Translations under genes and position numbers: made by a program
The notes under the pieces: generated by a model
The model's database searches: none
Told to the model about the DNA's origin: nothing
The model's input: the letters and a program-made list of their open reading frames with translations, nothing else
DNA from: Gammaproteobacteria bacterium
Lineage (GTDB): Bacteria; Pseudomonadota; Gammaproteobacteria; Eutrophobiales; Eutrophobiaceae
Assembly (NCBI GenBank): GCA_965116495.1
Contig: OZ220696.1
Location: forward strand, 3,776,001 to 3,840,000
Length of the DNA stretch: 64,000 nucleotides
Reading direction: 5' to 3'
Shown: positions 13,428-47,229 of the stretch, one piece after another
How positions within the stretch are numbered: the first letter of the stretch is position 1
Layout: each line of letters begins with the position of its first letter

Positions 13428-13628
13428 ATGGGTACAGCACTTTGCAAGGCCTTGCGGGAGGCAGGGGTATCGGATGAAATTGCCACCGCCGCGGCCGATG
13501 ACGCCGGGCAGACTGAGCGCCTGCAACGCGTGGAAGAGAGATTGACTCGTGTCGAGGTCACCTTGCGGGTATTGGTTGGTTTGGCGGTAGCTATCCTGGT
13601 CTTGCAATTACAACCGTTCCTTTCCTGA
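13428..13628 (+). CDS. Small coiled-coil protein with C-terminal TM anchor (DUF1640/CCDC90-like)
   Basis: L.KALREAGVSDE.A.AAA head, heptad stalk, hydrophobic C-terminus; clear paralogue at 31682-31900. Confidence 0.65.
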   Translation: MGTALCKALREAGVSDEIATAAADDAGQTERLQRVEERLTRVEVTLRVLVGLAVAILVLQLQPFLS

Positions 13629-13968: not shown

Positions 13969-14184
13969 TTACGCCATGGCATGCCATATCAGGCCCAGAG
14001 TCATCGCCATGTTTACGCCCACCATCCATTTGAGCACATGGATGTCTGCTTTAATTTCAGTTATATCAGCTTTAGTGGCGACCTGACCCTGACCCAATAT
14101 CGACATTGCTGCTTTCCGGGCTTTAGTTTCCGGGACATTTACACTTATAAGCGCATCGTATAGTTCCATGTTCATCATGCTCAT
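13969..14184 (-). CDS. Small DUF1640/CCDC90-like coiled-coil membrane-anchored protein
   Basis: ELYDALISVNVPETKARKAA head, VATKADI neck, LKWMVG+TM tail; GAGGAG RBS before ATG at 14184. Confidence 0.75.
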   Translation of the reverse strand: MSMMNMELYDALISVNVPETKARKAAMSILGQGQVATKADITEIKADIHVLKWMVGVNMAMTLGLIWHAMA

Positions 14185-14264
14185 GATGTCTCTCCTCAAT
14201 TTCCATGTGTTACGTATTCCTGATTGCTTCCTGGTTAACTCGCAAGCGGATTATACACATAATA

Positions 14265-29127: not shown

Positions 29128-29658
29128 ATGTTAAAAACATCGTCCTTGTTGTTCATAAGCCTGATCCTGTTAAGCTGCGGTACCGGGAAGAGCGCGCGGC
29201 AGGCTTTTGAGGCCGGAGATTACGCTACCGCGTACAAGCTGTTCAGACCCAGGGCCGAGGCCGGTGAGGCCGAGGCGCAGAATTACCTGGGCGTGCATTA
29301 TTACCTGGGCCTGGGGGTAAAGCGGAACTGGCGCCAGGCGCTGCAATGGTATGAAAAAGCGGCAAATCAAGGCGACCCCAGTGCACAACTCAACTATGGC
29401 CTGATGCACCATAACGGCTATGGCACGACCCCGGACATCGGTACGGCTTTCATGTGGTATTACGCATCCTACCGGCAGGGCAATGCAACTGCCGGGCATT
29501 ATATGAATACCCTGGCGGCGGATAACCTGCTGAGTCCGAACCAGATAGACTACGCCAAGCTCCGGGCAAGACAATACATCACCAACCCCGTTGTTGCTGA
29601 GCAGGGTTCGGAAGGCAGCTTGTTCCGCGAGGGGCAACATAGCGCGATCAGCCCGTAA
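29128..29658 (+). CDS. Sel1-repeat lipoprotein
   Basis: Lipobox LLSC; AQNYLGVHYYLGLGV, WYEKAANQG..AQ.NYG repeats; stop overlaps glmS ATG. Confidence 0.85.
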   Translation: MLKTSSLLFISLILLSCGTGKSARQAFEAGDYATAYKLFRPRAEAGEAEAQNYLGVHYYLGLGVKRNWRQALQWYEKAANQGDPSAQLNYGLMHHNGYGTTPDIGTAFMWYYASYRQGNATAGHYMNTLAADNLLSPNQIDYAKLRARQYITNPVVAEQGSEGSLFREGQHSAISP

Positions 29659-31487
29659 TGTGCGGTATCGTCGGGGCGGTTGCGGAGAGGGATGTCACGC
29701 CTATTCTGCTGGAAGGGTTGCGGCGCCTGGAATATCGCGGGTACGATTCCGCCGGTATCGTAGTGCTGAAAAAAACTGCGGGTTTCGACCGCCTGAGGGT
29801 ACAGGGCAAGGTCAATGAACTTGTTCAATCCGTCGGCGCATCATCCCTGCACGGCAATACCGGTCTTGCCCATACCCGCTGGGCAACCCATGGCCGTCCC
29901 AGCGTCAATAATGCCCACCCGCATATCTGTAAGGATGAAATTGCCCTGGTGCATAACGGCATTATCGAGAACCACGAAATGCTGCGGGCAGAACAGGCGG
30001 GCGCCGGCTATACGTTCGCATCGGAAACGGATACCGAGGTTGCCGTCAACCAGATCCATTACAACCTGCAGGGCAACGGGGACCTGCTCGCTGCGGTAAG
30101 GAACACCGCGGCGCAGATTGAAGGCACCTACGCACTGGGTGTCGTCGATAAAAACCGGCCGGAACGGCTGGTTGTTGCCCGGCAAGGCAGCCCCCTGGTT
30201 ATCGGCGTGGGTATCGGTGAGCATTTTATTGCCTCCGATATCTTTGCCCTGTTACCGGTAACGCGCCGGTTCATTATCCTGGAAGAAGGAGACATTGCCG
30301 AGGTTTACCGGGACAAGGTAGTAATCTTTGACCGTGACGGCAAGCGGGTGCGGCGCACACCGGTTACCTCTGAACTTTCTCCGGACAGCAGCGATAAAAC
30401 CGGTTATCGCCATTACATGGCCAAGGAAATATTCAGCCAGCCCGTTGCAGTCGCCGACACCCTGGAAGGCAGGATTAATCACCGTGGAATTATCGAGTCT
30501 GAATTTGGCATGGCCGCGGCCGGTTTTTTTGATCGAGTGCAAAACATTCATATTATCGCCTGCGGCAGCAGTTACCACGCGGGGCTGATCGCCAGGTACT
30601 GGCTTGAAGCCGAGGGCATTCAGTGCAGTGTCGATATCGCCAGTGAATACCGCTATCGCAACAGTGTAGTCCCGGCAAACACCCTGTTTCTGACAATTTC
30701 CCAATCGGGTGAAACCCTGGATGTGCTTGAGGCCCTGCGGCTGGCCAGGACCCGGCCTTACCTGGCGAGCCTGGCAATCTGTAACGTGCCGGAAAGTTCA
30801 TTGACGCGGGAAGCGGATATGGTTTTTCTTACCCGTGCCGGGATAGAAATCGGCGTCGCGTCAACCAAGACCTTTACCACCCAGTTGGTTGCACTGTTTA
30901 TGCTGACGATTGTACTGGCGCGCCGGCGCGGCCTGGATAAGGAGAAGGAATTGCGCTGGGTCAACCGGTTGGAGCAATTGCCCGGCCAGATTAACCATGT
31001 GCTTGAGTTGGACGGTCGCCTGGAAAAGCTGGCTGAGGAGTTCATCCATAAACATCATACCCTGTTTCTGGGCAGGGGAATGATGCTGCCGGTCGCCATG
31101 GAAGGTGCGTTAAAACTGAAGGAAATTTCCTATATCCACGCGGAAGCCTACGCGGCGGGGGAGTTAAAACACGGCCCCCTAGCGCTGATAGATGATGAAA
31201 TGCCGGTCATCGCTGTTGCGCCGAACAACAGCCTGCTTGGCAAGTTGAACTCCAATTTACAGGAGGTCCGGGCCCGCGGCGCCCGGCTGTATGTGTTTTC
31301 CGACGCGGATATCGGCATGGAAGTGAGTTCCAGCGTTAAGGTCCTGCAGTTGCCGGCAGTCGAAAACAGCATCGCACCGATCTTGTACACCGTGCCATTG
31401 CAATTGCTTTCCTACCACGTGGCCGTACTCAAGGGAGCTGACGTCGACCAGCCCAGGAACCTGGCCAAATCAGTAACCGTAGAATGA
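29658..31487 (+). CDS. glmS: Glutamine--fructose-6-phosphate aminotransferase
   Basis: MCGIVG, HTRWATHG, SQSGET, C-terminal PRNLAKSVTVE (the TnsD recognition region). Confidence 0.99.
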   Translation: MCGIVGAVAERDVTPILLEGLRRLEYRGYDSAGIVVLKKTAGFDRLRVQGKVNELVQSVGASSLHGNTGLAHTRWATHGRPSVNNAHPHICKDEIALVHNGIIENHEMLRAEQAGAGYTFASETDTEVAVNQIHYNLQGNGDLLAAVRNTAAQIEGTYALGVVDKNRPERLVVARQGSPLVIGVGIGEHFIASDIFALLPVTRRFIILEEGDIAEVYRDKVVIFDRDGKRVRRTPVTSELSPDSSDKTGYRHYMAKEIFSQPVAVADTLEGRINHRGIIESEFGMAAAGFFDRVQNIHIIACGSSYHAGLIARYWLEAEGIQCSVDIASEYRYRNSVVPANTLFLTISQSGETLDVLEALRLARTRPYLASLAICNVPESSLTREADMVFLTRAGIEIGVASTKTFTTQLVALFMLTIVLARRRGLDKEKELRWVNRLEQLPGQINHVLELDGRLEKLAEEFIHKHHTLFLGRGMMLPVAMEGALKLKEISYIHAEAYAAGELKHGPLALIDDEMPVIAVAPNNSLLGKLNSNLQEVRARGARLYVFSDADIGMEVSSSVKVLQLPAVENSIAPILYTVPLQLLSYHVAVLKGADVDQPRNLAKSVTVE

Positions 31488-31681
31488 GGGATTAGGGGCA
31501 GGTCCCTAACGGTGTAAATTGACAATTAAGTGTCATACTTACAATAAAGCATCATACTTTAAAAAGTGTCATACTTTTGCAAGATGAATTGGGTGGTTAA
31601 ATCCTTATTGTTGGTATCGAATGTTGGGCGGGTATAGTTTCGGACACCAGCAGACGTTCTCCAGGTGACCGGTCGCGGGGG

Positions 31682-31900
31682 TTATTGTAAAAGTGGGGCC
31701 AGTGGTACTGCTAGGATGACGAGTAGCAGGGCCGGGGTGATACGTGACGTTGTCCGGAATTCCGCTCGTAGCTCAGCCAGTTCGGTCTCGATCCGGTGCA
31801 GCCGCTCGCTCTGTCCCGCGCCGGCCGCGGCTTGTTTCGCTTGTTCTTCGGTTACGTTTGGTATCTGGCGTAGTACTTGGTAAAGGTCTTTTGTGCTCAT
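31682..31900 (-). CDS. Small coiled-coil/TM protein (DUF1640/CCDC90-like), sole cargo of the mini-element
   Basis: DLYQVLRQIPNVTEEQAKQAAAGAGQSERLHRIE, similar to the 13428 gene; hydrophobic C-terminus. Confidence 0.65.
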   Translation of the reverse strand: MSTKDLYQVLRQIPNVTEEQAKQAAAGAGQSERLHRIETELAELRAEFRTTSRITPALLLVILAVPLAPLLQ

Positions 31901-32105
31901 TTTGTTCACCGTATGATAAATGGTAGCAGAGAGGGTGCTTTGTCGTAAAATCGAATATAGTCATTGTTCATTGTTATATGCAATGAAGAGCTCGTTCGGT
32001 GTTAGGTTCGGATGACAACTTTATACATATTAATGAGGAGATTAGAATTAATCTGCGTCCGAAGTATGGTACTTTTGCTTTTATCTCCAAAAAGGTATCA
32101 AACAG

Positions 32106-32118
32106 AATCAACAACTTA
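32106..32118 (+). promoter_or_regulatory. IHF site inside the putative transposon left end
   Basis: AATCAACAACTTA is an exact WATCAANNNNTTR match, between the two outermost putative TnsB sites. Confidence 0.6.
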
Positions 32119-32160
32119 GGCTCTTGAAAGCACGATACTTTGTTGTATATTCACAACACC

Positions 32161-32802
32161 GTGATGGATTTTCTTGATTTTCGCCTGATTGTTAATACTG
32201 CTATAGGTACTGCTATTGGCGGGGTTGTTGCTACTTTTTTGTTTCTTCCAATTGTGATTGCTTGGCTTAAGACAGCATCAAATTGGAGCGGGTGGAAAAG
32301 AATAACTGTGGTTTTTGGCCCTGTCGCCGTTATTGTTTTATTTATTACATTTCTATTTTTGATTAAATATTTGGAATTGGCTGCGCAAGATAGTTTTGCG
32401 TTTTCGTGCCCTAAAGAATGTGTGCTGGATGAAATAACAGTTGTCAATAAATGTAATAGAACAGGAAATTTGTACGCCAACCCAGAAACGAGAATAAAAA
32501 TGTTAAGCGATAAGGAAATTTATTCTATGTTGCCTGGAAATCCGCCTGAGCCAAGGTATTTTTATCATGGTTTCTATCGGAAAGAGTCCCCATACCCATC
32601 TGCTATAACAGATTTAGCCAGACAAACATTTTTTGGTTGTATCAAAAAATCTGGTTACGTACCTCATGAGTGTGCAGCAGGCAAGCTTTGTTACAAAATA
32701 ATATCTACGTCATTTTTTGATAATGAACTGGGATTACCTATGACAGGACGTATAAACGGAATAAGTATGGTACGCGTTGAACCTTCAACGGAAATTGATT
32801 AA
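32161..32802 (+). CDS. Hypothetical AT-rich membrane protein (two N-terminal TM helices, Cys-rich soluble part)
   Basis: Long ORF in low-GC DNA; start placed at GTG 32161/ATG 32164, outside the transposon end. Confidence 0.6.
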   Translation: MMDFLDFRLIVNTAIGTAIGGVVATFLFLPIVIAWLKTASNWSGWKRITVVFGPVAVIVLFITFLFLIKYLELAAQDSFAFSCPKECVLDEITVVNKCNRTGNLYANPETRIKMLSDKEIYSMLPGNPPEPRYFYHGFYRKESPYPSAITDLARQTFFGCIKKSGYVPHECAAGKLCYKIISTSFFDNELGLPMTGRINGISMVRVEPSTEID

Positions 32803-32841
32803 TCCGATTAATTCTCTTTTGCTCAGTTAGAAGTATTATTC

Positions 32842-33891
32842 GTGAATATTCCGAATAATGAGGGTATGGCGTGCGACGCCGTGATACGGCATCTTGAGAA
32901 ATGGACCGACGAGACACGCACCGAAATTCGTCATCCCGAATCAGACGGTGTCGGTCCGCCCGTTGAACTGCGCCTGCAACTGGGCAATCAAAACTACGCG
33001 ATTGAGCACACGCGCGTTGAGTCGTTTGATAACCAGATCAAGGCCGGCATCTCAATCAGAGAAATAAAGAACTATATCAAGGAGCAGTTTACGGACCCCT
33101 TGCCGGGACCGGTTTACTACGAATTGCAGGTGCCGATGGATGTCTGCCTCCCTGAAAAGAGGAAAGATAGAGAGCGGATGTTAAGCACTCTTGACATGTG
33201 GATTAGAGAGGGTGCGCATTGTATGCATGGGAGGAACACAGACCTTTTTAGACCCCTGTTCGCACCCAATCGTAGCAAAGTCTGGCACGATGACTGCGTT
33301 ACCGGCACACCGCTGGGTACTGCTTATGAAATCAAATTGGTGCGGACAAAACTCTGGCCGCCTGATATACATACAGCAGGGCGCAAGCCGGGGACTATTG
33401 TGCTGTGGTACAACTACCTCGATGAAGATGAAAGAAGCCATCGTTATTTCAGGCGGCTGCAACGGGCGTTTGACAAAAAGTGCCCGAAACTCAAACGTTG
33501 CAAGGTCGAAGGCGCCCGAACGGTACTGATACTGGAGGCCGTCGATTCCATCGTCACGCTCACCGACCAGATAGGTCGCCATCTTCCAGCATTACTGGAC
33601 GGACAGAAGGATGCGCCGGACGATATTTATCTGGTAAGTCCCAGTGACTCTCTGTGGTGGGTGTATCCGGTAAAACATGATGACGACCATTGGCCTGACG
33701 TGGGGATGCCGCCGCCGGGACAATCCATCTACGAGGAAGGCATATCACCGACGGCAGGCATGCCGAAATGGTACAGGGATGGACTCGGGTTGGATGATTT
33801 GTATGTGACTATGCCGCGGAAGTGGTACCCGGGCACCTTCGACCAACATGAACTGGATGACCTGACACAGGACCAGGCTTCAGAGATGTGA
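32842..33891 (+). CDS. Hypothetical protein, possible PD-(D/E)xK-like nuclease fold
   Basis: 349-aa ORF; PE......PVELRL......YAIEHT resembles the P(D/E)...IEHT pattern; function uncertain. Confidence 0.55.
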   Translation: MNIPNNEGMACDAVIRHLEKWTDETRTEIRHPESDGVGPPVELRLQLGNQNYAIEHTRVESFDNQIKAGISIREIKNYIKEQFTDPLPGPVYYELQVPMDVCLPEKRKDRERMLSTLDMWIREGAHCMHGRNTDLFRPLFAPNRSKVWHDDCVTGTPLGTAYEIKLVRTKLWPPDIHTAGRKPGTIVLWYNYLDEDERSHRYFRRLQRAFDKKCPKLKRCKVEGARTVLILEAVDSIVTLTDQIGRHLPALLDGQKDAPDDIYLVSPSDSLWWVYPVKHDDDHWPDVGMPPPGQSIYEEGISPTAGMPKWYRDGLGLDDLYVTMPRKWYPGTFDQHELDDLTQDQASEM

Positions 33892-34106
33892 TGTCGAAAT
33901 TGAGTGATACTGATTGGATTAGGACGACACCATGAGTGTCTCGAAAAGCATTGCGACCGACTTCATCGTTGGAGATTAGGAATGCCCGAGAAAGTAATAC
34001 ACCAGTGCTGACGTTGCAGCGGGCGAGGTAACGTTGGAACACGCACCTCCCGCATCGCTCAAAGAATCACCCCTCTGCTTGACATGCTTTCCAAAGACAA
34101 GAAAAC

Positions 34107-34295
34107 GTGATGTCCGAAGGGCACAACCCACCCATCGGCATCCTTCTCTGCATACAGCGTGATCATACGCTGGTAGACTATGCGCTGGCCCGGATGGACA
34201 ACAGCCTTTTTGTTTCCAAATACCAGCTAGAGCTTCCAAATAAGGAAGAAATGCAGCGGTTTATCGAGGTACGGGGGCGGGAAACGGGATCATGA
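34107..34295 (+). pseudogene. C-terminal fragment of a YhcG/DUF1016 PDDEXK nuclease
   Basis: EG.NPPIGILLC......LV.YAL..M...LFVSKYQLELP..EEMQRFIE. Confidence 0.8.
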
Positions 34296-34380
34296 AACCG
34301 TTAACTGGATCGCAAATTGCTATCATCCACCTGAGAGTGACCAAGTCAGCAACAGTTCTTGAGACCTGCACGGAGCAAAT

Positions 34381-34479
34381 ATGGGAAAGATTGAGAATTT
34401 TGAAGATATCGAAGCTTGGAAGAAGGCGCGGGAACTGGCCAGGCAAGAGCAACTGAAGCTGACCGGAGGCAACAAATGA
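34381..34479 (+). pseudogene. N-terminal fragment of a four-helix-bundle (IVS-protein-like) gene
   Basis: [21 protein letters not shown] then unrelated tail; TGA overlaps hsdM ATG. Confidence 0.7.
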
Positions 34480-36026
34480 GCAAGAACAACAATAGTGCCA
34501 ATCTCGGCTTTGAGAACCAGATGTGGGCAGCTGCAGACAAGCTCCGGGGGCATATGGACGCCTCTGAGTATAAGCACGTGGTTCTCGGTTTGATTTTTCT
34601 GAAATACATCTCTGACGCTTTCCAGGCCAAGTACAAGCAGCTTGAGGCCATGAAGGATACCGAATACACCGACCCGGAAGACCGAGACGAATACTCGGCA
34701 GCCAACATCTTCTGGGTGCCGAAGGAAGCCCGCTGGGCCAAACTGCAGGCGAGCGCCAAACAAACGACTATCGGCAAGCTCGTTGATGATGCGATGGTGG
34801 CCATTGAAAAAGAGAATCCGACGCTTAAAGGCGTTCTCCCCAAGGACTATGCGCGCCCGGCCTTGGACAAACACCGTTTGGGTGAGCTCATCGATATCAT
34901 CAGCAAGATCGGGCTTGGGGATGATGAATCCAGGTCGAAAGATATTCTTGGTCGGGTCTATGAGTATTTCCTCGGGCGTTTTGCCGCAGCGGAAGGAAAA
35001 GGCGGCGGCGAGTTTTACACGCCTCAGTGCGTGGTCAAACTGCTCGTCAGAATGATCGAGCCCTATAAAGGCCGCGTGTATGACCCGTGCTGCGGCTCTG
35101 GCGGCATGTTTGTCCAGAGTGAGCATTTTGTTGAAGAGCGCGGCGGACGCCTGGGCGACATCGCCATCTATGGCCAGGAGTCCAACTCCACTACCTGGCG
35201 GCTAGCCATGATGAACCTTGCCATCAGAGGGCTTGATGCCAATGTTGGAGGTCAGCATGCAGACAGCTTCCACAACGACCTGCACAAAGACCTGCGCGCC
35301 GATTTCATCCTCGCCAATCCGCCTTTTAACATGAGCGACTGGGGCGGCGAACGCCTTCGGGAAGACGCCCGCTGGAAATACGGCATCCCGCCGGTGAACA
35401 ACGCCAACTACGCCTGGATTCAACATTTCATCCATCACCTGTCGCCTACGGGTGTTGCCGGTTTTGTCATGGCCAACGGCTCCATGTCCACCAATACCAC
35501 CAGCGAGGGAGAAATTCGCAAGAACATCATTGAGGCTGACTTGGTGGACTGCATGATTGCGTTACCCGGACAGCTCTTTTACACGACGCAGATTCCGGTG
35601 TGCCTCTGGTTCGTAGCCCGGAACAAGAAGAACGGCAAGTTCCGCAACAGGCGCGGCCACACGCTTTTCATTGATGCGCGCAAACTCGGCGCCCTCGTTG
35701 ATCGAACCCACAAGGATTTTTCCGAAGAAGAGATCGACAACGTCGTAACCACCTACCATGCCTGGCGGGGCGAAAAGAATGCCGGTGAGTATAACGATGT
35801 GCCAGGCTTCTGCAAGAGCGCCAGTACCGGGGAAATCAAGGAACATGGTTACGTGTTGACCCCTGGTCGCTATGTGGGCGTTGCTGAGATCGAGGACGAC
35901 GGCATTCCATTCGAGGAGAAGATGGCCGGACTTTCAGCCACGTTATACGAACAGTTTGCCGAAGCCGACAGGCTCGAAGCCGTCATCAGGAAGAACCTGG
36001 AGGTCTTGGGGTGTGGGGTGGAATAG
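34476..36026 (+). CDS. hsdM: Type I restriction-modification methyltransferase subunit
   Basis: [28 protein letters not shown]. Confidence 0.96.
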
Positions 36027-36210
36027 ATGACGGTTCGAGTATCCATCAGTTCGGTACAGAAAGAGCTTGAACCGGAGCGGCTCGCATTGTTCTCGTTATT
36101 GACCACCGATCCGACGTTAAAGGGTTATATTGAACCCATTCTCTTCGAACAGCTTTTCTCGCCCGTGGGCAGGGCGAACCGACCGATAATCGACCGACGA
36201 AACGGAAAAA

Positions 36211-36312
36211 ATGACCGAACTTTCAGCCACGTTGTATAAGCAGTTTGCCGAACCTGCTCAACTCGGAGCCAGCATACAAAAGAATTTGGGGTCGATGGGC
36301 TATGGCGAGTGA
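36211..36312 (+). repeat. Diverged second copy of the hsdM 3' end
   Basis: MTELSATLYKQFAEPAQLGASIQKNLGSMGYGE versus [34 protein letters not shown] (35922-36026). Confidence 0.85.
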
Positions 36313-37543
36313 TTGGCAGGAATACAAGCTCGCGGACCTCTGCGAGTCGATTGATTATGGATTCACTACATCGGCCAAAGACGAGCCTGTAGGGCCGAAG
36401 TTCCTTCGTATTACCGATATTGTGACCGGTCATATTGACTGGAATGATGTGCCTTACTGCGAGAGTGACCAAGCTAATACTAAACAGTACCTTGTCCATG
36501 ACAAAGACATTGTTATCGCTCGAACAGGCGCAAGTACCGGGAGCAGTATTTTTATATCTTCTCCCCCAGAAGCAGTGTTTGCTTCGTATCTGGTACGTCT
36601 GAAGATTTCTGATAAGGCTCATTCTCGGTTTATCTCTTATTTTCTGAAATCTCCAGAGTTCTGGGCTTATATGCAGGGCGTATTGGGTGACAAATCTGCA
36701 CAACCCAATGCTAGCGCTAAGACAATGACCCAGGTCAAACTGAAATTACCACCAAATAATGAACAACAGGCCATTGCTCATATCCTCGGATCGCTGGACG
36801 ACAAAATTGAATTGAACCGCCGGATGAACGAAACGTTGGAGGCCACTGCCCGGGCAACTTTCAAGTCCTGGTTCGTGGATTTCGATCCGGTGCGAGCCAA
36901 AGCAGAAGGCGGTGACACCGGCTTGCCGGAAGATGTGGCCGCGCTCTTTCCCGACAGTTTCGAGAACTCGGAGCTTGGGGAGATTCCGGCGGGGTGGTAT
37001 GTCAAGACAATTGGAGATGTGGCTGAGTTTGCCTATGGAAAGGCCTTAAAGGCATCCGATAGAAAACTCGGCGACGTACCGGTATTTGGTTCCAATGGAC
37101 AAGTGGGACTACACAATGAAGTCTTTGTCAAAGGACCAGGAATCGTTGTCGGACGAAAAGGCAATCCAGGAATCGTCACATGGTCATATGAGGATTTTTT
37201 CCCAATTGACACAACCTTCTATGTCAAGAAAACAGGAGTTGTTTCAAGCCTGCACTATCTTTTCTATGCTCTAAAATATCAAGATTTACCGAGTTTAAGC
37301 GCAGATTCCGCCGTTCCTGGGTTGAACCGAAATTTAGCATATATGAGTAAGTTCTTAGTGCCTCCTGAAAAGGTCTTGAAGGTTTTAGATGGACAGATTT
37401 ATCCATTATTTCAAACGATCTACACAAATGAAAAAGAAATAATAACCCTCGCTTCTCTCCGCGATATCTTCCTGCCCAAACTCATTTCCGGCGAGTTGCG
37501 TGTCCCGGATGCCGAGAAATTCGTTGAGGAGGCCGGGATATGA
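36302..37543 (+). CDS. hsdS: Type I RM specificity subunit (two TRDs)
   Basis: LPP..EQQAIA.ILGSLDDKIELN, ELGEIP.GW, L..LRD..LPKLISGELRV. Confidence 0.95.
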   Translation: MASDWQEYKLADLCESIDYGFTTSAKDEPVGPKFLRITDIVTGHIDWNDVPYCESDQANTKQYLVHDKDIVIARTGASTGSSIFISSPPEAVFASYLVRLKISDKAHSRFISYFLKSPEFWAYMQGVLGDKSAQPNASAKTMTQVKLKLPPNNEQQAIAHILGSLDDKIELNRRMNETLEATARATFKSWFVDFDPVRAKAEGGDTGLPEDVAALFPDSFENSELGEIPAGWYVKTIGDVAEFAYGKALKASDRKLGDVPVFGSNGQVGLHNEVFVKGPGIVVGRKGNPGIVTWSYEDFFPIDTTFYVKKTGVVSSLHYLFYALKYQDLPSLSADSAVPGLNRNLAYMSKFLVPPEKVLKVLDGQIYPLFQTIYTNEKEIITLASLRDIFLPKLISGELRVPDAEKFVEEAGI

Positions 37544-39837
37544 TAGAAAAATTCATTTCAATAAAGAACATCGGGCGGTTTCGAGATTGCAGTCCTCGTG
37601 GGGATGTGTCCTTACGGAAGTTGACCTTGCTTTTTGCCGAGAACGGACGAGGCAAGACGACGCTTTGCGCGATCTTCCGTTCGCTCCAAACCGGCTTGTC
37701 TCAATACATTTCCGAACGGCAAACATTGGGAGCGACAGATTCGGCATCCGTCCAAGTACGACTTGACGGTAATACTTACGCTTTTGCGACCGATGGGTGG
37801 TCGTCCACTCACTCGGACATTATCGTATTTGATTCGGTCTTTGTTCATGACAATGTGTACGCTGGTGATTATGTAGAGCACGAACACAAGAAGAATCTCT
37901 ACCGTGTAGTCGTCGGTGCCCAAGGCGTTCAACTCGCACGGAAGGTTGAAGACTTGGACGGCAAGATTCGTGATGTCAATACCGACATCAACACAAAAAA
38001 AAGCGTTGCATCAAATACTCTCCCGAATGGAACGACGCTCGAGGATTATCTTTCCTGGCAACCTGTCGAAGATGTTGAAACCAAGATAAGTCAGAAGAGT
38101 AGCGAAGTAGCCAATCGTCAGCGCGCTTTGGACAAGGCGACAGAAATACAATCCAAAGGCCTGCTTTCGAAGATTGGCCTGCCCGCTCTTCCTGCCGATT
38201 GCTTGGACATTCTATCCAAACAGTTAACCGATATAATTGCTGATGCTGGGGCGCGCATCCGACGGCAAATCGAAGATCACAGCATGGGGAACCAAGGCGA
38301 AACATGGCTATCTCAGGGATTGGGCTTTGTTGCCGAAGACAAATGCCCCTTTTGCGGGCAAGGAATCACGACCAACGAACTGATTGCCGCCTACAACTCG
38401 CATTTCAACACCGCCTATGCGGAATTGAAGCAGGAAGTTGCAGCCCTTTCTCAGCGAGTATCCAGTGCGGTCGGGGAAACCTCTCTCAACACTCCTCAGC
38501 AAACGTACTCAAGCAACCAGACGCTCGTCGAATTCTGGAAGCAATTTACCGAAATTGCTGTGCCCTCCCTCGACTTCGAGGATGTCCGCATAAAGTACAC
38601 AACGCTTCACGATCTTGCCTCAATGCTGGCTGAAACAAAGCAGCAATCGCCAACGGAGCCCATTCTGCCGGGTGACGATTTCCAGGCCGTGCTTGGTGCT
38701 GTGACTGCCCTTCAATCCTCAGTCGAGGTTTACAATGCCGCAGTGGAAACGGCAAATACTCTCATCAACGAGCAGAAAGCATCAGTGCAGCAAGGCGCTG
38801 ACATAAACGTTCTCAAAAGTGAACTGGCCGACTTGGTGGCTAAGAAAGAGCGCTTCGAGTCGGATGTTGTGCAGGCATGCAAACACTACCAAGATGCGGT
38901 AAAAGCGAAGACCTCTCTTGAACAGCAAAAAACGGCGGCCAAGGAACAGCTCGACCAACACTGCGAGCAGATTCTTCAAACCTGCCAATCGTCCATAAAC
39001 ACATACCTGGACCAGTTTAATGCTGGATTCAGAATCACGAACTCACGGCATCGATATACCGGTGGAACACCCAGCTCTCATTACCAGATTGAAATAAATA
39101 ACAATGCAGTTGACCTTGGCGATTCACGAACACAACCGGGCACACCAAGCTTCAAGACAACTCTGAGTTCGGGAGACCGAAGCGCTTTAGCCCTTGCTTT
39201 TTTTCTTGCGGTGTTGAAGCAGGATGCGGAAATCGAAAACAAGATTGTCGTCTTCGATGATCCATTCACCAGTCAGGATCGCTTTCGCCGCACATGTACG
39301 CAGCAGCTGATTCGCCAAATGGCAGACACGGCCCAACAGGTTATCGTTCTCTCACATGATCCGTCATTCCTGAAATCCATCTGGGAAGGTTACGCAACCG
39401 CAGACATCAAAACTCTGCAAATGTGCAGGACTGGAGATAATACGATCATCGGCGAGTGGGATATTGAAGCGGAAACGAAGTCAACTTACTTGAAGAACTA
39501 CTCCGCGCTTCTTGATTTCTATCGGGAATGGAAAGGTGTACCGTTGGATGTTGCGCGCTCAATCCGTCCCTTCATTGAAGGGTTGCTACGTGCTCGTTTC
39601 CCCGGACACTTTCAACCAAACGAATGGCTTGGTGATTTCATTGTCAAAATCCGGAACGCAAGCAATACCGATGGACTGTCTCCCGCCCAAGCTGATCTAT
39701 CGGAAATCGAAGCGATCAACGATTATTCCAAAAAATACCACCATGATCAGAATCCAAGTGCAGCTTCTGAAACTTTGTCAGAAGACGAATTGCATGGCTT
39801 TGTAAAACGAACACTAAACTTAGCAGGGGATTGTTGA
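37540..39837 (+). CDS. AAA_13 / Rad50-SMC-like ATPase with zinc hook (RloC-like)
   Basis: Walker A AENGRGKTT, coiled coil with CPFCGQ hook, LSSGD signature, VVFDDP, LSHD; extra helical C-terminal domain; sits between hsdS and hsdR. Confidence 0.8.
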   Translation: MIEKFISIKNIGRFRDCSPRGDVSLRKLTLLFAENGRGKTTLCAIFRSLQTGLSQYISERQTLGATDSASVQVRLDGNTYAFATDGWSSTHSDIIVFDSVFVHDNVYAGDYVEHEHKKNLYRVVVGAQGVQLARKVEDLDGKIRDVNTDINTKKSVASNTLPNGTTLEDYLSWQPVEDVETKISQKSSEVANRQRALDKATEIQSKGLLSKIGLPALPADCLDILSKQLTDIIADAGARIRRQIEDHSMGNQGETWLSQGLGFVAEDKCPFCGQGITTNELIAAYNSHFNTAYAELKQEVAALSQRVSSAVGETSLNTPQQTYSSNQTLVEFWKQFTEIAVPSLDFEDVRIKYTTLHDLASMLAETKQQSPTEPILPGDDFQAVLGAVTALQSSVEVYNAAVETANTLINEQKASVQQGADINVLKSELADLVAKKERFESDVVQACKHYQDAVKAKTSLEQQKTAAKEQLDQHCEQILQTCQSSINTYLDQFNAGFRITNSRHRYTGGTPSSHYQIEINNNAVDLGDSRTQPGTPSFKTTLSSGDRSALALAFFLAVLKQDAEIENKIVVFDDPFTSQDRFRRTCTQQLIRQMADTAQQVIVLSHDPSFLKSIWEGYATADIKTLQMCRTGDNTIIGEWDIEAETKSTYLKNYSALLDFYREWKGVPLDVARSIRPFIEGLLRARFPGHFQPNEWLGDFIVKIRNASNTDGLSPAQADLSEIEAINDYSKKYHHDQNPSAASETLSEDELHGFVKRTLNLAGDC

Positions 39838-39912
39838 AATGATTAAGACCTCCGAAACCATTCTTGACTGGATTGTTAAGGAGCTGGCACATCGCATCCC
39901 TGGGTGAGAAGT

Positions 39913-40920
39913 ATGAAGCAAAACAACGAAATCATCCTTTACAGCACCCCGGACGGTGACAAGAAAGTCGGTGTATTGTTTCACGATGAGAATTTCTGGC
40001 TGACCCAGAAGGTCTTGGCTGAGCTATTCAATGTAAAGATACCTGCAGTCAGTAAACATCTTAAAAATATCTTTGAATCCGGTGAACTGATTGAGGATTC
40101 AGTTATTTCCATTTTGGAAACAACTGCTGTCGATGGCAAAAACTATAAAACCAAATATTACAACCTCGATGCCATCATTGCCGTTGGATACCGGGTTAAC
40201 AGCTACCAGGCCACCCAATTCCGTATTTGGGCAACCAAAACTCTGAAAGAATTCATCATCAAGGGTTTTGTGCTGGATGATGAACGGCTCAAACAGGGAA
40301 AGCACTTCGGCAAGGATTATTTCGATGAGCTTCTGGAACGGATTCGGGAAATCCGGGCCAGTGAGAGGCGGTTTTATCAAAAGATCACCGATATTTATGC
40401 GCTTTCAGCGGATTATGATCGGGACGCTCCGATGACCCATGAATTTTTCGCTACCGTTCAGAACAAACTGCACTGGGCCATTACCGGAAAGACCGCGGCG
40501 GAAATCATCTACGAAGCGGCGGATGCAGAAAAAATGCACATGGGGCTTACAAGCTGGAAGCAGGCGCCTGACGGGAAAATTCTGAAATCGGATATCTCTG
40601 TTGCCAAAAACTATTTGAGCGAGGCTCACATCAGAGAATTAAACCGGATTGTGACCGCCTACCTCGACCTTGCCGAAAATCGGGCTGAGCGGCAGATTCT
40701 CATGAGGATGGAAAACTGGGTTCAGTTTCTGCACAGTTTTTTGGAGCTTTCCAACTACCCGATTCTTAAAGACAAGGGAAAAGTAAGCGCGCTCGATGCG
40801 AGATTGAAGGCCGAACAGGAATACGAAACATATAGGAAGCAACAGGACCGGGACTATATTTCCGACTTTGACCGGGAAATTAAGCGCGTTCAGGGCACGC
40901 AAGGGGAGGACTTTGAATAA
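39913..40920 (+). CDS. RhuM-family protein
   Basis: [56 protein letters not shown]. Confidence 0.92.
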
Positions 40921-43900
40921 AACCACCGAAGTACTTCTCGAACGTACCGCCCTCGATTGGTTCCAATCCCTGGGCTGGGCCACAGCCTTCGGCCCGGATA
41001 TCAGCCCTGACGGTCCGACGCAGGAACGCCAAGATTATGCTCAGGTTGTCTTGGCCGGCAGACTTCAGACTGCGCTTGAGAACATCAACCCAAACATCCC
41101 ACCAGATGCCATAGAAGAGGCTGTACGGAAAATCGCGAGGTCCGACTCGCCCAGTTTAATCGAGAACAATCGGTGTTTCCATCGGATGCTTACCGATGGA
41201 GTAGATATCTCCTATATGCAGGCTGGTAGAGAGGTCCACGACAAGGTCTGGCTGCTCGACCTTGAGGACCTGGATAATAACGATTGGCTCGCCGTCAATC
41301 AGTTCACCGTCATCGAGGATCGCAGAAATCGCCGGCCTGACATCGTGGTTTTCGTCAATGGCCTGCCCCTGGGCGTGATCGAGCTAAAAAATCCAGCAGA
41401 TGAAAAGGCAACTATTCGTCACGCATTCAACCAGCTTCAGACGTACAAGAGCGATATACCCGGCCTCTTCATTTATAACGAGCTGCTTGTCATTTCCGAC
41501 GGTCTGGAAGCACGCGGCGGGACGCTTACAAGCGGCTGGGACCGGTTCATGCCGTGGCGCACAATTGACGGCAAAGAATTTGCCCCGCGAGGCTCTGTGG
41601 AACTTGAAGTGCTGCTAAAGGGAGTTTTTGAAAAGCGGCGGTTTCTCGACCTTGTATTGAATTTCATCGTATTCGAAGATGACGGAGCCACCATCGCCAA
41701 GAAAGCGGCGGCGTATCACCAGTTCCATGCCGTGAACAAAGCGGTTGAATGCACTCTGTCGGCGTGCGGCATCGATGCTGATTCCGACATGCTGTATGTC
41801 CGCTTCCCGAAGCATGACGAGCATAACCCTTTTGCAGTGCGCGAACCGCAGGCCGCTTATGGTTCGGGAACCGAACACTTTGGCGGCCGCCGCATCGGGG
41901 TGATCTGGCATACCCAGGGAAGCGGAAAAAGTCTATTGATGGCGTTTTTCGCCGGTAAAGTCATCCGTCATCCCGCCATGGAGAACCCTACGCTGCTGAT
42001 GATCACCGACAGGAACGACCTGGACGACCAGCTTTTCGGAACGTTTTCATCCTGTAACGATCTTCTTCGGCAAACACCCGTTCAAGCGGAAAACCGGGAG
42101 CATTTGAAGAAGCTGCTTCAGGTTCCTGCCGGTGGGGTTGTTTTCACGACGATTCAGAAGTTTCTGCCCGACACCAAGGGCCAGCAATACCCAGAGTTGT
42201 CTGTCCGCCACAATATCGTGGTTATTGCCGATGAAGCGCACCGCAGTCAGTATGACTTTATCGACGGATTCGCACGCCACATGCACGATGCCTTGCCGAA
42301 CGCTTCCTTTATAGGATTTACGGGAACTCCCATAGAGCGTGATGACCGCAACACGCCAGCGGTCTTTGGTAACTACATCGACAAATACGACATCCTGCGC
42401 GCGGTTGAGGACGGGGCCACGGTGCCCATCTTCTACGAAAGCAGGTTGGCGAAAATTGATTTACAGGAGGAGCAAAAGCCGAAAATCGACCCTGAGTTTG
42501 AAGAGATCACCGAGGGTGAAGAAGAGTCCGACAAGCAAAAACTGCGCACCAAGTGGGCCGCCCTTGAAGCGATGGTCGGTACGGAAAAGCGAATCGCACT
42601 CATTGCGGAAGACCTCGTTAGCCATTTTGAGGGTCGTCTCTCAGCCATAGACGGTAAAGCTATGGTTGTTTGCATGAGTCGTCGAATCTGTGTGGACATG
42701 TACAACGCCATCACAAAGCTCAGGCCGGACTGGCAGAGCAGTGACGATGGCAATGGCGTGCTGAAGATCGTCATGTCCGGTTCTGCATCTGATCACGCTG
42801 ACTGGCAGCCCCATATTCGCAGCAAGTCGCGGCGTGAGGCCCTGGCCAAAAGATTCAAGGACCCGGACGATCCTATGAAGGTGGTAATCGTGCGGGATAT
42901 GTGGTTGACCGGTTTCGACTGTCCGTCACTACACACAATGTACGTGGATAAGCCGATGCGGGGGCATGGCCTGATGCAAGCAATAGCTCGCGTCAACCGG
43001 GTGTTCAAAGACAAACCGGGTGGATTGGTTGTCGATTACCTTGGCCTCGCAGATCAGTTGAAACGGGCCCTTGCGGACTACACCGGAGCGGGCGGCCGCG
43101 GTAAGGCGGCGGTCAACCAGGAAGAAGCTGTTGCGGTGATGCTGGAGAAGTTCGAGGTCGTCGTCTCCATGTTCCACGGCTTCGATTACCTCTCTATTCT
43201 CAAAGCAGAACCGGCAACGCGTATCGCCGGTATCGCGGCCGCTATGGAACATATCCTTCAGCTGGACGATGGTAAAAAGCGCTATCTGGCAGAGGTTACG
43301 GCGCTGTCGAAGGCATTTGCTCTCGCTGTTCCGCATGAGGAAGCTCTTAAGGTGCGTGATGAAGTGGGGTTCTTCCAAGAGGTCCGCGCCGGGCTGGCGA
43401 AAGCAACGGTTGAAGGCGAAGGCAAGAGCCCTGAAGATATGGATACTGCTATCCGCCAGCTCGTGTCGCGAGCAGTGGCGACTGAAGAGGTCATCGACAT
43501 TTTTGCAGCGGCGGGCCTGAAGAAACCCGACATTTCAATACTATCGGATGACTTCCTCCAGGAAGTACGGCAGCTTCCTCACCGGAACCTGGCGGTGGAA
43601 TTACTGAGGAAACTTCTGAACGATGAGATCAAGACGAATTCCCGCAAAAACGTCGTTCAGGCACGATCCTTCGCGGAGATGCTTGAAAAGGCCATACGGA
43701 AATACCAGAACCGTGCAATTGAGGCAGCACAGGTCATCGAGGAATTAATCAGGTTAGCCAAGGAGATGCGCGAAGCTCAGCAGCGTGGCGATGATCTCGG
43801 GATGACCGATGATGAGATTGCTTTCTACGACGCGCTGGAAGTCAATGATAGCGCCGTTAAGGTTTTAGGGGATGAGACGCTCAAAACGATTGCCCACGAG

Positions 43901-44089
43901 TTGGTCGAAGCGGTTCGACGGAGCGTAACGATAGACTGGACCGTCCGTGAAAATGCCCGTGCCCAAATACGTGTGATCGTGAAGCGGATTCTTCGCAAGT
44001 ACGGGTATCCCCCGGACAAACAGGAAAAAGCAACACAAACCGTTCTGGAGCAGGCGGAAGTTCTGTGTAGAGAGTGGGCCGAGAGCTAA
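40913..44089 (+). CDS. hsdR: Type I restriction endonuclease subunit R
   Basis: RPD...VNGLP..VIELK nuclease, [25 protein letters not shown]; TTG start after GGAGGA. Confidence 0.96.
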
Positions 44090-44209
44090 ACCAGGGAGAA
44101 ATGCAAATTCAATGATGAGAGATGAAATAGCATGTTGTTTCAACGACACCCAGTCATGTATCCAGGGTGATCCTGACCTGCTCGGTCCACAGGCGAAAGG
44201 TGTGGACAA

Positions 44210-45292
44210 ATGAGTGTGCTCGATGCCGCTATACAGGTATTGAAAGAAGCGGATAACCCACTTCATGCTAATGAGATTACGGGACGTATTCTATCGAAGG
44301 GCCTTTGGAAGACCTCCGGCAAAACTCCTGCTGCGACTGTCAGTGCAAGGCTCTATTCGGATATTAAGAAAAAGGGAGAAAACTCACATTTCATCCTTCA
44401 CGCGCCGCTGACCTTCGGCCTCAGAACATTGGAGTTCCCTGATAAGGGTGCGGGTGATGCGCAGCCTGAGGATATTTCCTTGGAGGCTATCCAGACACAA
44501 ACCAAGACATACTCATTCACTGATTCTGCCGAGAAAGTGTTGGAAAAGTTCGGTAATAGACGACCAATGCATTATCGAGCTATTACCGACAAGGCTCTTG
44601 GGTTGGGGTGGCTGGTCAGCGAGGGTAAGACACCCGAAGCTTCAATGTACGCGCAGATTTTGACGGAAATTAAACGCTTTAACCGCCGTGGGGAGCAGCC
44701 TCGATTCGTTCAGCATGGTAAGGGGTATGTTGGCCTTTCGAAATGGATGGGTCGGGGGCTCGCATTTGAAATCGAACAGCACAATAAAAAAGTACGCCAG
44801 GCATTGCATAAACGCCTGTTCGAAACGAAGTGGGATGCTTTTGAGGAATTGATTGCACGGCTCTTGGCAGAGATGGGTTTCGAGGAAATCGAGGTCACAA
44901 GCCGCAGCAAGGATGGTGGCATCGACGTTCGTGGAACCTTGGTTGTCGGTGATGTCATTCAGACGAGAATGGCCATTCAGGTTAAAAAGTGGAAGCGAAA
45001 TATACAGGCTCCGGTCGTCCAACAGGTCCGAGGGAGCCTCGGCACCCACGAGCAAGGGCTCATCATCACTACCAGTGACTTCAGTGCAGGTGCACGCAAG
45101 GAAGCCGCCAGATCGGATGCCACACCCGTCGGGCTAATGAACGGAGAACAACTGGTTCTACTGCTCATCGAAAACGGCATTGGAGTTTCACGACGAAGCC
45201 ACGATTTGTTTGAACTCGAGGATTTATCCAACGCAGAGGTTGGCACCAATGCCAGTGTACCCATGTCTCAGTCCGACAATGTGGAAGGATGA
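44210..45292 (+). CDS. Mrr-family (Type IV) restriction endonuclease with two HARE-HTH domains
   Basis: Two repeats of D.A..VL......H...IT...L..G.....GKTP.A; FEELIA.LL..MGF, DGGID, IQVKK, ITTSDFS. Confidence 0.88.
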   Translation: MSVLDAAIQVLKEADNPLHANEITGRILSKGLWKTSGKTPAATVSARLYSDIKKKGENSHFILHAPLTFGLRTLEFPDKGAGDAQPEDISLEAIQTQTKTYSFTDSAEKVLEKFGNRRPMHYRAITDKALGLGWLVSEGKTPEASMYAQILTEIKRFNRRGEQPRFVQHGKGYVGLSKWMGRGLAFEIEQHNKKVRQALHKRLFETKWDAFEELIARLLAEMGFEEIEVTSRSKDGGIDVRGTLVVGDVIQTRMAIQVKKWKRNIQAPVVQQVRGSLGTHEQGLIITTSDFSAGARKEAARSDATPVGLMNGEQLVLLLIENGIGVSRRSHDLFELEDLSNAEVGTNASVPMSQSDNVEG

Positions 45293-45341
45293 GTCAAAAT
45301 TCCTAAATGGCAGATGGTCCAGGTTAGAAGACGGGGTCAAC

Positions 45342-45915
45342 ATGGGTAGTTATTGCACTCTCTACTTTGATGAGCTAGAAATATGCAACGCGAAGTCAGC
45401 CGTTCCAGACGTTTTTAGTGCTATCTTCCAAGAGTCAGATCGATCGGTTCGAAAATCTCGATATGAGGAAGATAACACGCCAGAAGTAGTATATGAAACT
45501 GCTAAAGATACAGTACTCGCCCGTCTCGCTCTCCTAGGATGTACTTCGCAATTTGCACGTGAACGGCTATCCACATGGATTACCGAAGAACGTGCAACTT
45601 GGGAAGAACGTGCTTCGGGGGACGAAGGAAATTGGGCTGAAGAGACTACTATGGCTCTACGTAACTTTACCATTGAAGAGTGGTATAGACGCGTTCCTCA
45701 GGTCCTTGTTAATTAGGGAACCTCTGGCTTAATCAGATGGTTCCCTAGTAAAATTTCTTAAAGCTTTCGCTGCAGCCAGAACTCCTCTTCGCCTTGTCGC
45801 AATCTTCGATAACGATACTGCTGGACATCAGGCATTCCGACAAGCCCAAGACCTTGTTTTGCCTGATAACATGATTTTACTTCGATTGCCAGATATGGAA
45901 TTTGCTAGTGAATAT
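45342..45915 (+). pseudogene. HEPN/Toprim-associated N-terminal domain protein, broken and internally deleted
   Basis: MGSYCTLYF......K..V......IFQESDR N-terminus stops at 45716; out-of-frame Toprim piece FLKAFAAA......AIFDNDTAG...LPD resumes at about 45748. Confidence 0.7.
45713..45748. mobile_element. Collapsed IS5-like footprint (two terminal IRs only)
   Basis: TTAG-GGAACCTCTG-GCTTAAT-CAGATGGTTCC-CTAG exactly at the gene break. Confidence 0.55.
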
Positions 45916-46047
45916 AAACTTCATGCTTTTCTGCTTTTTCTTGACCTGTGCCATTATTAGGTCTAATACATATTTGCTACTCGGAGTATGCTAACCGGAA
46001 GGAACTGGAAATGATTAACGGTAAAGTTATTAGCACAGGAGAAAGAT

Positions 46048-46458
46048 ATGCGAAAAGTTATTGGTCTTGCGATGTTGTTACTTCTTTCCGGTTGTGATGA
46101 CGCAGAGGTGGCGTCGCACAACTTGTCAAAAGCAGCGGAGAATTTTGAGATTGACCGGCGTGTGATTTTCTATAACGGCATCGCGGATACGTACATGCTG
46201 ACCATTGAGGGCCGGTGCGCAATCAAAGACCAGTCCACTCAGTTAGAGGTTACCTGCAAGTTAGGCGAGGGTCAGTACAAGAAACACTTTCTTGGCCTGT
46301 CTGACAACGTGACGTACTTCGCTGAGCAACTGAGTACGGCGGATGTGGCTGCGTATCATTATCGGGTGACGTTCAAGCCACAAACGATTTTGCCGGACGT
46401 TGACTTCCGCGGCAGCGCCAGGGAGCTTTTGGAAAACGCATCCGAAAAAAGGGATTGA
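46048..46458 (+). CDS. Phage-type lipoprotein of unknown function
   Basis: Lipobox LSGC; A.VAS.NLSKAA.NFEI.RRV.F.NGI.D.Y.L.IEGRC...YKKHFLGLSDNVTYF.EQL, a family I recognise from phages. Confidence 0.75.
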   Translation: MRKVIGLAMLLLLSGCDDAEVASHNLSKAAENFEIDRRVIFYNGIADTYMLTIEGRCAIKDQSTQLEVTCKLGEGQYKKHFLGLSDNVTYFAEQLSTADVAAYHYRVTFKPQTILPDVDFRGSARELLENASEKRD

Positions 46459-46487
46459 TGAACCAGCTAAAGTTTTTGCAGACTGTT

Positions 46488-46643
46488 TTACTGAACAACG
46501 CCAGATGACAACATGACTTGAACAAGCACACCAGTGTCGGCGACAGCAAGACTGGCAGCCACGAACATACAACCGACCATCCAGGTAATGAGCCATGTTT
46601 CCAGCTTGTCTATTCTGGATTCTAATCTTGAAAACCCATCCTT
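46488..46643 (-). pseudogene. Headless remnant of a DUF1640/CCDC90-like gene
   Basis: Manual translation KDGFSRLESRIDKLETWLITWMVGCMFVAASLAVA...; no nearby in-frame start. Confidence 0.55.
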
Positions 46644-46650
46644 GTAAGCA

Positions 46651-47229
46651 TCAGCGCAGCAGCGTTTGCACTTGCAGCGACAGTTGCTCGTCGGCGCCGC
46701 GGATCCATTCGAACAGTACCGATTCTGCGTCGCTGATGATAATCCCGGCCCTGCCCAGGCGCCTTAATGCTGTTTCATAGTTTTCCCTTTGCCGGGAGCA
46801 GACCGCATCCGCTACCACAAAAACCACGTAACCCCGGTTGTGCAGGTCAAGCGCCGTCTGCAATACACATACATGCGCTTCCATGCCGACCAGTATGGCC
46901 TGCTTCCTCCTTGTTGAAGTCAGGTCCGCGGCAAAATTGTCGGCGCCGGTACAGGAAAACGTGGTCTTTTCATACGTTTTCGCGGTGGCCGGCAATAACT
47001 TCCGGATTTCCGGTTCCATGATGCCGAGCGAATCGGGAGACCGTTCCATAGCGAATACCGGCAGCGCCAGCTTGGCGGCCGTATTAATCAGCAACCATGT
47101 ATTTCTCTGCAGCCTGGCCAGCACCTTGGCCGGCATGACCGCGGTCAATTCCGTCTGTATGTCGATAATGACCAATACGGAATTGCCGGCGTCACAAAGC
47201 GAGGTGTAGTTTTCTGCGGCAGATGCCAT
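46651..47229 (-). CDS. Isochorismatase-family hydrolase
   Basis: VIIDIQ, EKTTFSC, GMEAHVCVLQT, ES.LFEW. Confidence 0.9.
   Translation of the reverse strand: MASAAENYTSLCDAGNSVLVIIDIQTELTAVMPAKVLARLQRNTWLLINTAAKLALPVFAMERSPDSLGIMEPEIRKLLPATAKTYEKTTFSCTGADNFAADLTSTRRKQAILVGMEAHVCVLQTALDLHNRGYVVFVVADAVCSRQRENYETALRRLGRAGIIISDAESVLFEWIRGADEQLSLQVQTLLR

Follow-up and report, generated by a model that had tools for sequence, protein, structure and literature searches.

Just downstream of glmS, a 64-kb stretch of the gammaproteobacterial genome G000 (the window, 64,000 nucleotides) carries a 643-bp segment bounded by Tn7-type ends. Mini-Tn7 is the name of a laboratory construct. The question raised by this locus is whether the segment is a natural unit of that design, moved by the transposase of another element, or instead a remnant of a larger transposon, a guard of the insertion site or a coincidence of repeats.

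Results

Ends and Position of the Element

The glmS gene (29658..31487, + strand) encodes 609 aa, and its 3′ end, specifying PRNLAKSVTVE, is what TnsD recognizes and thereby defines attTn7 (PMC2918618). The element (31513..32155, + strand) reads TGT...ACA and was classed as a non-autonomous mini-Tn7 from its ends, its copies and a comparison of flanks. A sequence-only reading of the window had placed the start of its TGT 25 nt past the glmS stop codon; the stop ends at 31487 and the TGT begins at 31513, which agrees with that reading and with the ∼25 nt that mark a right end at attTn7. In the right end (31513..31580, + strand), the TGT is followed by packed 19-bp predicted TnsB sites at 31522 and 31541 and by a weaker third at 31558/31560. 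Those at 31522 and 31541 are the sole matches to the right-end site pattern in the window, where 0.01 would be expected by chance. The left end (32128..32155, − strand) comprises site L1 (32128-32146) and the terminal ACA, with a second predicted TnsB site, L2 (32062..32080, − strand), farther in, both assigned by sequence pattern. The packed right-end repeats, the wider-spaced left sites, the ACA end at 32155 and the 20/28 agreement of the two termini, all described in the earlier reading, were reproduced. This is the arrangement of Tn7-family ends, with the exception of a third left-end position (32008..32026, − strand), which is intact in 3/7 copies of the element and decayed in the window copy, where it scores below background.

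The IHF consensus is WATCAA-N4-TTR. The perfect match reported earlier between the two outermost left sites was found at 32106..32118 (+ strand), between L1 and L2; such a match arose in 0.4% of shuffles of the 47-nt spacer, and its position is as in PMC10201428. The 5-bp flanks are AACGG on the att side (31508..31512, + strand), which lacks a repeat at the other end, and ACACC on the distal side (32156..32160, + strand).

The junction was also seen in assemblies of other sequencing runs. The junction between glmS and the element is present in run X5, from another study, with zero differences over 31293-31748. In run X1, a 125-letter contig with a depth of 4.7, against 20.3 for the main allele, diverges right past the terminal TGT (window 31486-31515); possibly, some members of that population carry another element at this att position, or this one low-depth contig is an error. 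A contig of run X7 joins the glmS end to right-end sequence of the opposite strand within ∼300 letters (window 31477/31558); either a related strain has an element that is inverted or very small, or the contig is a chimera.

The Cargo Gene

As the earlier reading had it, the element holds no tns genes (Tns queries found no match genome-wide) and a single 72-aa gene (31682..31900, − strand). The encoded protein, counted from the ATG, consists of a short helix, a coiled-coil-like helix and a predicted C-terminal membrane anchor formed by a hydrophobic stretch (KD19 2.13). A monomer model shows a short helix and one long helix running to the hydrophobic stretch (pLDDT 76, pTM 0.38). Putative expression signals (31905..31949, − strand) comprise a −35 element (31944-31949), an extended −10 element (31920-31928) and a GGTGA ribosome-binding motif (31905-31910); by eye they are conserved in most copies, at a level below the threshold of a consensus scan.

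The gene is intact in 6/7 copies, the start codon having been lost in one of the G015 copies (C3a). The dN/dS ratio ranges from 0.20 to 0.64 and is below 1 in 21/21 pairs; insertions and deletions preserve the reading frame, and the differences split by codon position as 471/311/649. By these measures, the cargo gene is under purifying selection. The product is likely a small coiled-coil protein that is expressed, anchored in the membrane and maintained by selection, as far as prediction and modeling can indicate; a membrane-level defense role would be a guess from the island context of the copies.

The cargo protein has 22 close homologues, and a wider search yielded 50 representatives with E values of at most 0.001. 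Within the genus, 15/23 genomes contain homologues. Six loci in four genomes (G009, three in G010, G003 and G007) carry close homologues without end sites, which indicates that the gene is not specific to the mini-element. At one of these (L108, G009:C4:154652-154858), the gene and the promoter region of the minis lie directly past a tRNA-like sequence; this locus is a possible source or decayed copy.

The cargo protein received no Pfam, PDB-sequence or fold assignment. An Atlas feature score of 0.87 against a cluster in which 36% of members carry PF07798 serves as a lead only, and PF07798 was unmatched by the cargo, its 24 aligned relatives and 40/50 distant homologues scanned. Some distant homologues contain a VATKAD motif, which we take to be one that also occurs in the CCDC90-like family. 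CCDC90-like proteins have a trimeric head-neck-stalk-anchor structure. Two database labels were rejected, the protein being too short and lacking such domains: a PHROG “DNA binding protein” match, which was weak (12/24 members, best E 3.6e-5), and the Atlas “integrase” labels.

Genes of similar design were also observed elsewhere. The window has two more small ORFs with a helix, a coil and a hydrophobic tail, at 13428-13628 (+ strand) and 13969-14199 (− strand), the former a distant cargo homologue (E 3.3e-9) without transposon ends. In G013, four such genes lie in tandem (C1:650154-651221). Four tandem, near-identical coiled-coil genes with a weak Hjc-type nuclease match were found in L001 (2544-5472; G000:C1 about 3633500-3636500), beside large repeat-rich proteins and 4.5 kb from the second G000 copy of the element.

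A Family of Copies in One Genus

The search for other copies that the earlier reading called for yielded a second copy in G000 and five more in G022 and G015. The family thus has seven full copies (G000 x2, G022 x2, G015 x3) in three genomes of one genus; they are 594-770 bp long, are 64-91% identical in pairs, and have a common layout and a common gene. The second G000 copy (C1:3641009-3641628, 620 bp) is 71% identical to the window copy and is flanked by ATTTT on both sides. Perfect target duplications surround 4/7 copies (ATTTT, CCATG, GGGCT, CTGAG), one copy matches at 4/5 positions, and two, the window copy and G015 C3a, have none. This recurrence at unrelated sites with perfect 5-bp duplications indicates that the unit itself transposes. 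The nearest relative of the window copy, G022a, is 82% identical over the full length and lies away from glmS between perfectly duplicated flanks, so the short form predates its arrival at the window site.

In 7/7 copies, an IHF core is found at a distance of 47-50 nt from the left end, and in two it is perfect; the third left site is decayed in 4/7, and the termini of G000b and G022a are mutated (TGG, TAT). Six of the seven copies are away from glmS, and the non-glmS copies of G015 and G022 sit in accessory islands, among methylase, ATPase, integrase, SLOG and TOTE genes.

A DNA search with the element matched 7/61 genomes, all within this genus. The end pattern gave 13 matches in 5/23 genomes of the genus, with none for the reversed control; no match was found in the other genera among 126 family genomes, where the reversed control gave one. 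Single ends alone of the window's end family occur in G016 and G020. A plasmid search returned only nine short matches at 8% coverage, which were taken as chance, and the element had no match in Rfam. The single viral match was likewise put down to chance, having no second site in the 220 bases inspected and no tns match.

These copies bear directly on the idea that a full-size Tn7 formerly occupied this glmS site and was cut down there by deletion, so that the short form itself never moved. Several features would suit a remnant. Degraded elements are common at attTn7 (54/203 genomes with insertions and 21 predicted functional, in PMC11014353), orphan right ends of the same family occur at glmS in G015 and G016, and the window copy lacks a target duplication. 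Its right end is also nearer to that of a Microbulbifer transposon (43/47) than to those of the sister minis (38-40/47). A remnant does not account for the same short layout and gene at six non-glmS sites, four of them with perfect duplications, nor for the full-length similarity to G022a. The duplicated flanks of the sister copies already largely refute this reading, and it is very unlikely.

Cognate and Noncognate Transposases

The earlier interpretation required a TnsB-encoding element with similar ends, and two such elements were found. When 185,579 species genomes were scanned for the two-site right-end pattern, six loci were found, five from elements of this lineage and one in Microbulbifer okhotskensis. 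In the latter (L071), the same end begins 25 nt past the stop codon of glmS, with tnsA and tnsB next to it; the window right end is identical to this autonomous Tn7 end at 43/47 positions. Among the 32 loci obtained by scanning metagenomes with the same pattern, L080 has the end 26 nt past the glmS stop, followed by genes for TnsA, B, C and D and a second TniQ-type gene (40/47 identity). An IHF motif is present at the matching offset in 3/8 metagenome left ends examined. The cargo gene is absent from all 32 metagenome end matches.

Might the ends belong to another TGT...ACA family (Tn5053/Tn402-like or CAST), or be chance repeats, with the glmS position a coincidence? The 19-bp site spacing and the location of most copies away from glmS would fit, but in glmS elements that encode TnsA, TnsB, TnsC and TnsD, this end immediately precedes tnsA, the offset is exactly 25 nt with the right end first, and the chance expectation for the two sites is low. 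A coincidental origin is extremely unlikely.

G000 itself (99.5% complete, one contig) gave no match by tblastn to ten Tns queries, with positive controls working. Pfam searches of G000 for TnsA, TnsD, TniQ and Mu-C were empty, with controls silent for three of them, so the absence of tns genes is based on the tblastn search. Neither the element nor the genome thus contains the tnsABC genes and target selector of an autonomous transposon. No helper with the same ends was detected in the 126 family genomes. The sole TnsA found there belongs to a complete TnsABCDE element at glmS in G015 (L043 10873-18687, G015:C6), which has the other end family described below (22/47 end identity), a frameshifted tnsC and a TnsB 36% identical to that of L080. 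The helper of the minis would thus be a past or passing visitor, and the sequence comparisons suggest that the element was likely mobilized in trans by TnsAB of a visiting full-size Tn7 with matching ends.

attTn7 and a Second End Family

Among 21 genus genomes with a glmS match, ten are of the empty type, five have other DNA and six have a TGT end 24-26 nt past the stop. In the ten empty alleles, the 3′ end of a gene that we take to be isochorismatase-like follows directly after glmS, without repeats. The empty relatives sought by the earlier reading thus exist, in 10/21 genomes, and all lack the end repeats. With these alleles, the cognate glmS elements and the duplications in 4/7 copies, its central proposal of a natural non-autonomous Tn7-family mini-element stands.

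Short helper-less units at glmS were also found with a second Tn7 end family, in G016 (G016:C77, L045 18482-19217, 736 bp, AATTT on both sides), G005 (L053 995-1695, 701 bp, TATGT on both sides) and G022 (L050 1439-2055, 617 bp, mismatched flanks). A unit of this end family at glmS in G019 (L052 895-6536) is helper-less as well. The G016 and G022 units each contain two tiny hydrophobic ORFs that look similar by eye. In G022, the att-side TAGGA recurs past a distal left end 13.6 kb away; the 617-bp unit forms the near module of a composite of 13.6 kb that also holds AAA and HD-domain genes.

In G015 and G016, the second end family has inserted directly before window-family right ends at glmS, with duplications ACTTG and AATTT, respectively. 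Until that insertion, the distance from the glmS stop to these orphan right ends (L044 14547-15193 and L045 18057-18477) was 24 nt, and an ORF6N-domain gene follows both, intact in G015 and internally deleted in G016.

These insertions are informative about target immunity, by which the earlier reading had the element block attTn7. A domesticated guard, kept for shielding attTn7 from incoming Tn7, would draw on the strong immunity given by immobilized mini-elements in Tn6022 (about 100% down to 2e-5, in PMC11014353), on the well-preserved right-end sites of the window copy and on the TGT ends past glmS in 6/21 genomes. The positions of the copies, 6/7 away from glmS, do not suit such a role, and the X1 minority contig (depth 4.7 against 20.3) that branches after the TGT is a weak hint of another occupant. 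General blocking is contradicted by the other-family insertions before same-type right ends in both genomes, an imperfect test with partial ends; if there is immunity, it would act against the cognate transposase alone. A guard role is quite unlikely.

The Downstream Island and the Missing Duplication

The gene directly behind glmS in the empty alleles sits at 46651-47229 in the window, which identifies 31513-46650 as an island. Its accessory part beyond the element (32161..46650), delimited by gene content and comparison with the empty alleles, carries type I restriction-modification, AAA ATPase, RhuM, Mrr-like and HEPN/Toprim fragment genes. The first two ORFs, 32164-32802 (212 aa) and 32842-33891 (349 aa), have low GC and no Pfam match. 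The 212-aa protein had no usable relative in the 126 family genomes; strains from two further studies have it with 95-99% conservation. An outward-facing, promoter-like site (10/12) was observed in the left end (32124-32151, + strand), 13 nt before the ATG at 32164; by its sequence and position, the left end of the element may drive this gene.

Contigs of runs X6 and X7, from two other studies, match the window from exactly 32156, the first base of the ACACC flank, with 47 differences in 1045 and 2 in 181. On the other side of this position, 363 and 977 letters, respectively, are unlike the element at a cut-off of 85%, with which a diverged end is compatible. Together with the right end at the exact att offset, these match starts make both junctions of the window copy look transposase-made. 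As cautioned in the earlier reading, a 5-bp duplication is absent (AACGG and ACACC agree at 1/5 positions), and the ends were probably joined in separate events, not by a clean single insertion. A distal partner was sought in the island: none of the 22 AACGG sites lies behind ACA, and there are no further sites of either end family above threshold.

Most likely, the 15-kb defense island was founded by a composite, with the window copy as its near module. The mini-Tn7 would first have inserted into a donor molecule, at ACACC next to the 212-aa gene; its right end would then have paired with a more distant left end and hauled the neighboring genes into attTn7, and the distal left end of the composite would have been lost later. 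The 13.6-kb composite of G022 serves as a precedent, and composite capture is reported for Tn7-like elements in PMC11014353. This composite hop with later loss of the distal end falls only a little short of an even chance. Recombination between two copies would explain the missing duplication too and is rather unlikely; a transposase-made deletion from the left end is somewhat less likely still, and drift of a duplicated flank is improbable.

Discussion

The window element very probably belongs to a genus-level family of transposase-less mini-Tn7 units that were likely moved in trans by visiting TnsAB. This reading starts from direct observations: the ends, the copies, their target duplications, the matching autonomous elements and the absence of tns genes. 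The mechanism is drawn from Tn7 biology. TnsB would bind the 19-bp sites, IHF would bend the left end, and TnsC with TnsD would set the right end 25 nt past glmS; copies away from att would arise by a TnsE-type or untargeted pathway into accessory islands. According to PMC10201428, VchCAST requires three left sites. By that analogy, the decay of the third left site in 4/7 copies makes the present mobility of the mini-Tn7 doubtful.

The principle is already well known, in that transposons give rise to non-autonomous derivatives and composites. What the locus offers is a natural family of mini-Tn7 design with evidence for movement as a unit. Its natural minimal ends come with an IHF motif, a cognate TnsABCD set can be named for them, and the cargo draws attention to a selected family of small membrane proteins that lacks annotation. 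A survey that starts from tnsB passes over elements of this kind, so their contribution to islands at attTn7 may be under-counted. A bolder and tentative reading, itself unlikely, is that in this genus two Tn7 end families each yielded 0.6-0.75-kb cassettes with tiny membrane genes, as stable, selected parasites of Tn7 that ride on transient helpers, confer a membrane benefit and act as handles for hauling islands. If this were true, the benefit could be, for example, phage or superinfection exclusion, and pairing with distant ends would bring defense islands into attTn7.

Comparison with Known Systems

The element resembles Tn7 and Tn7-like elements at glmS in its TGT...ACA termini, packed right and spaced left repeats and a right end adjoining glmS, and, in the sister copies, in the 5-bp duplications typical of Tn7 (targeting and duplication are covered in PMC2918618 and PMC11406308). 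It differs in the absence of tns genes, in the sequence of its sites, in the missing duplication of the window copy and in size (0.6 kb against medians of 14-29 kb for Tn7-like elements, in PMC8649781). That survey required tnsB, so such units could not be listed in it. Helper-less ends at attTn7 and islands formed by composite capture of neighbors are shared with degraded Tn7 elements at glmS (PMC11014353), and partly deleted, multicopy Tn7-like elements with proposed trans mobilization are described in PMC11837452. In contrast to the elements of these two papers, the minis are a fixed short unit with their own conserved gene, promoter and spacing, keep no tns fragment and recur at unrelated sites across species. 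As in type I-F CAST left ends (PMC10201428), an IHF motif lies between the first two left-end sites; unlike these systems, the minis have no CRISPR-Cas genes or array, and the cognate elements found use TnsD at glmS. In size and in its helix, long helix and hydrophobic C terminus, the cargo protein is like CCDC90-like/DUF1640 proteins (PF07798), from which it differs in having neither a PF07798 match nor a fold match.

The closest functional parallels may be the MITEs, TIMEs and MICs, which by analogy are also non-autonomous, use a cognate transposase in trans, duplicate their target and form composites. MITEs are defined as about 30-300 bp with many near-identical copies, and TIMEs are 262-bp Tn3-derived elements that form TIME-COMP composites (both from PMC4133298). 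With 594-770 bp, 2-3 copies per genome and 64-91% identity, the minis fall outside the strict MITE definition; a multicopy MITE burst would look different from this small, diverged set of copies. They also differ from MITEs and TIMEs in the asymmetric, multi-site ends of Tn7 type with an IHF motif, in carrying a selected gene, which is MIC-like, and in being able to use a targeted site. In its accessible text, a MITE review mentions Tn7 for targeting alone (PMC10969869), and our search of largely open-access literature found no account of natural sub-kilobase Tn7 minis. Neither an autonomous Tn7 nor a strict MITE, the mini-Tn7 resembles in its way of working a MIC or MITE that has Tn7 ends.
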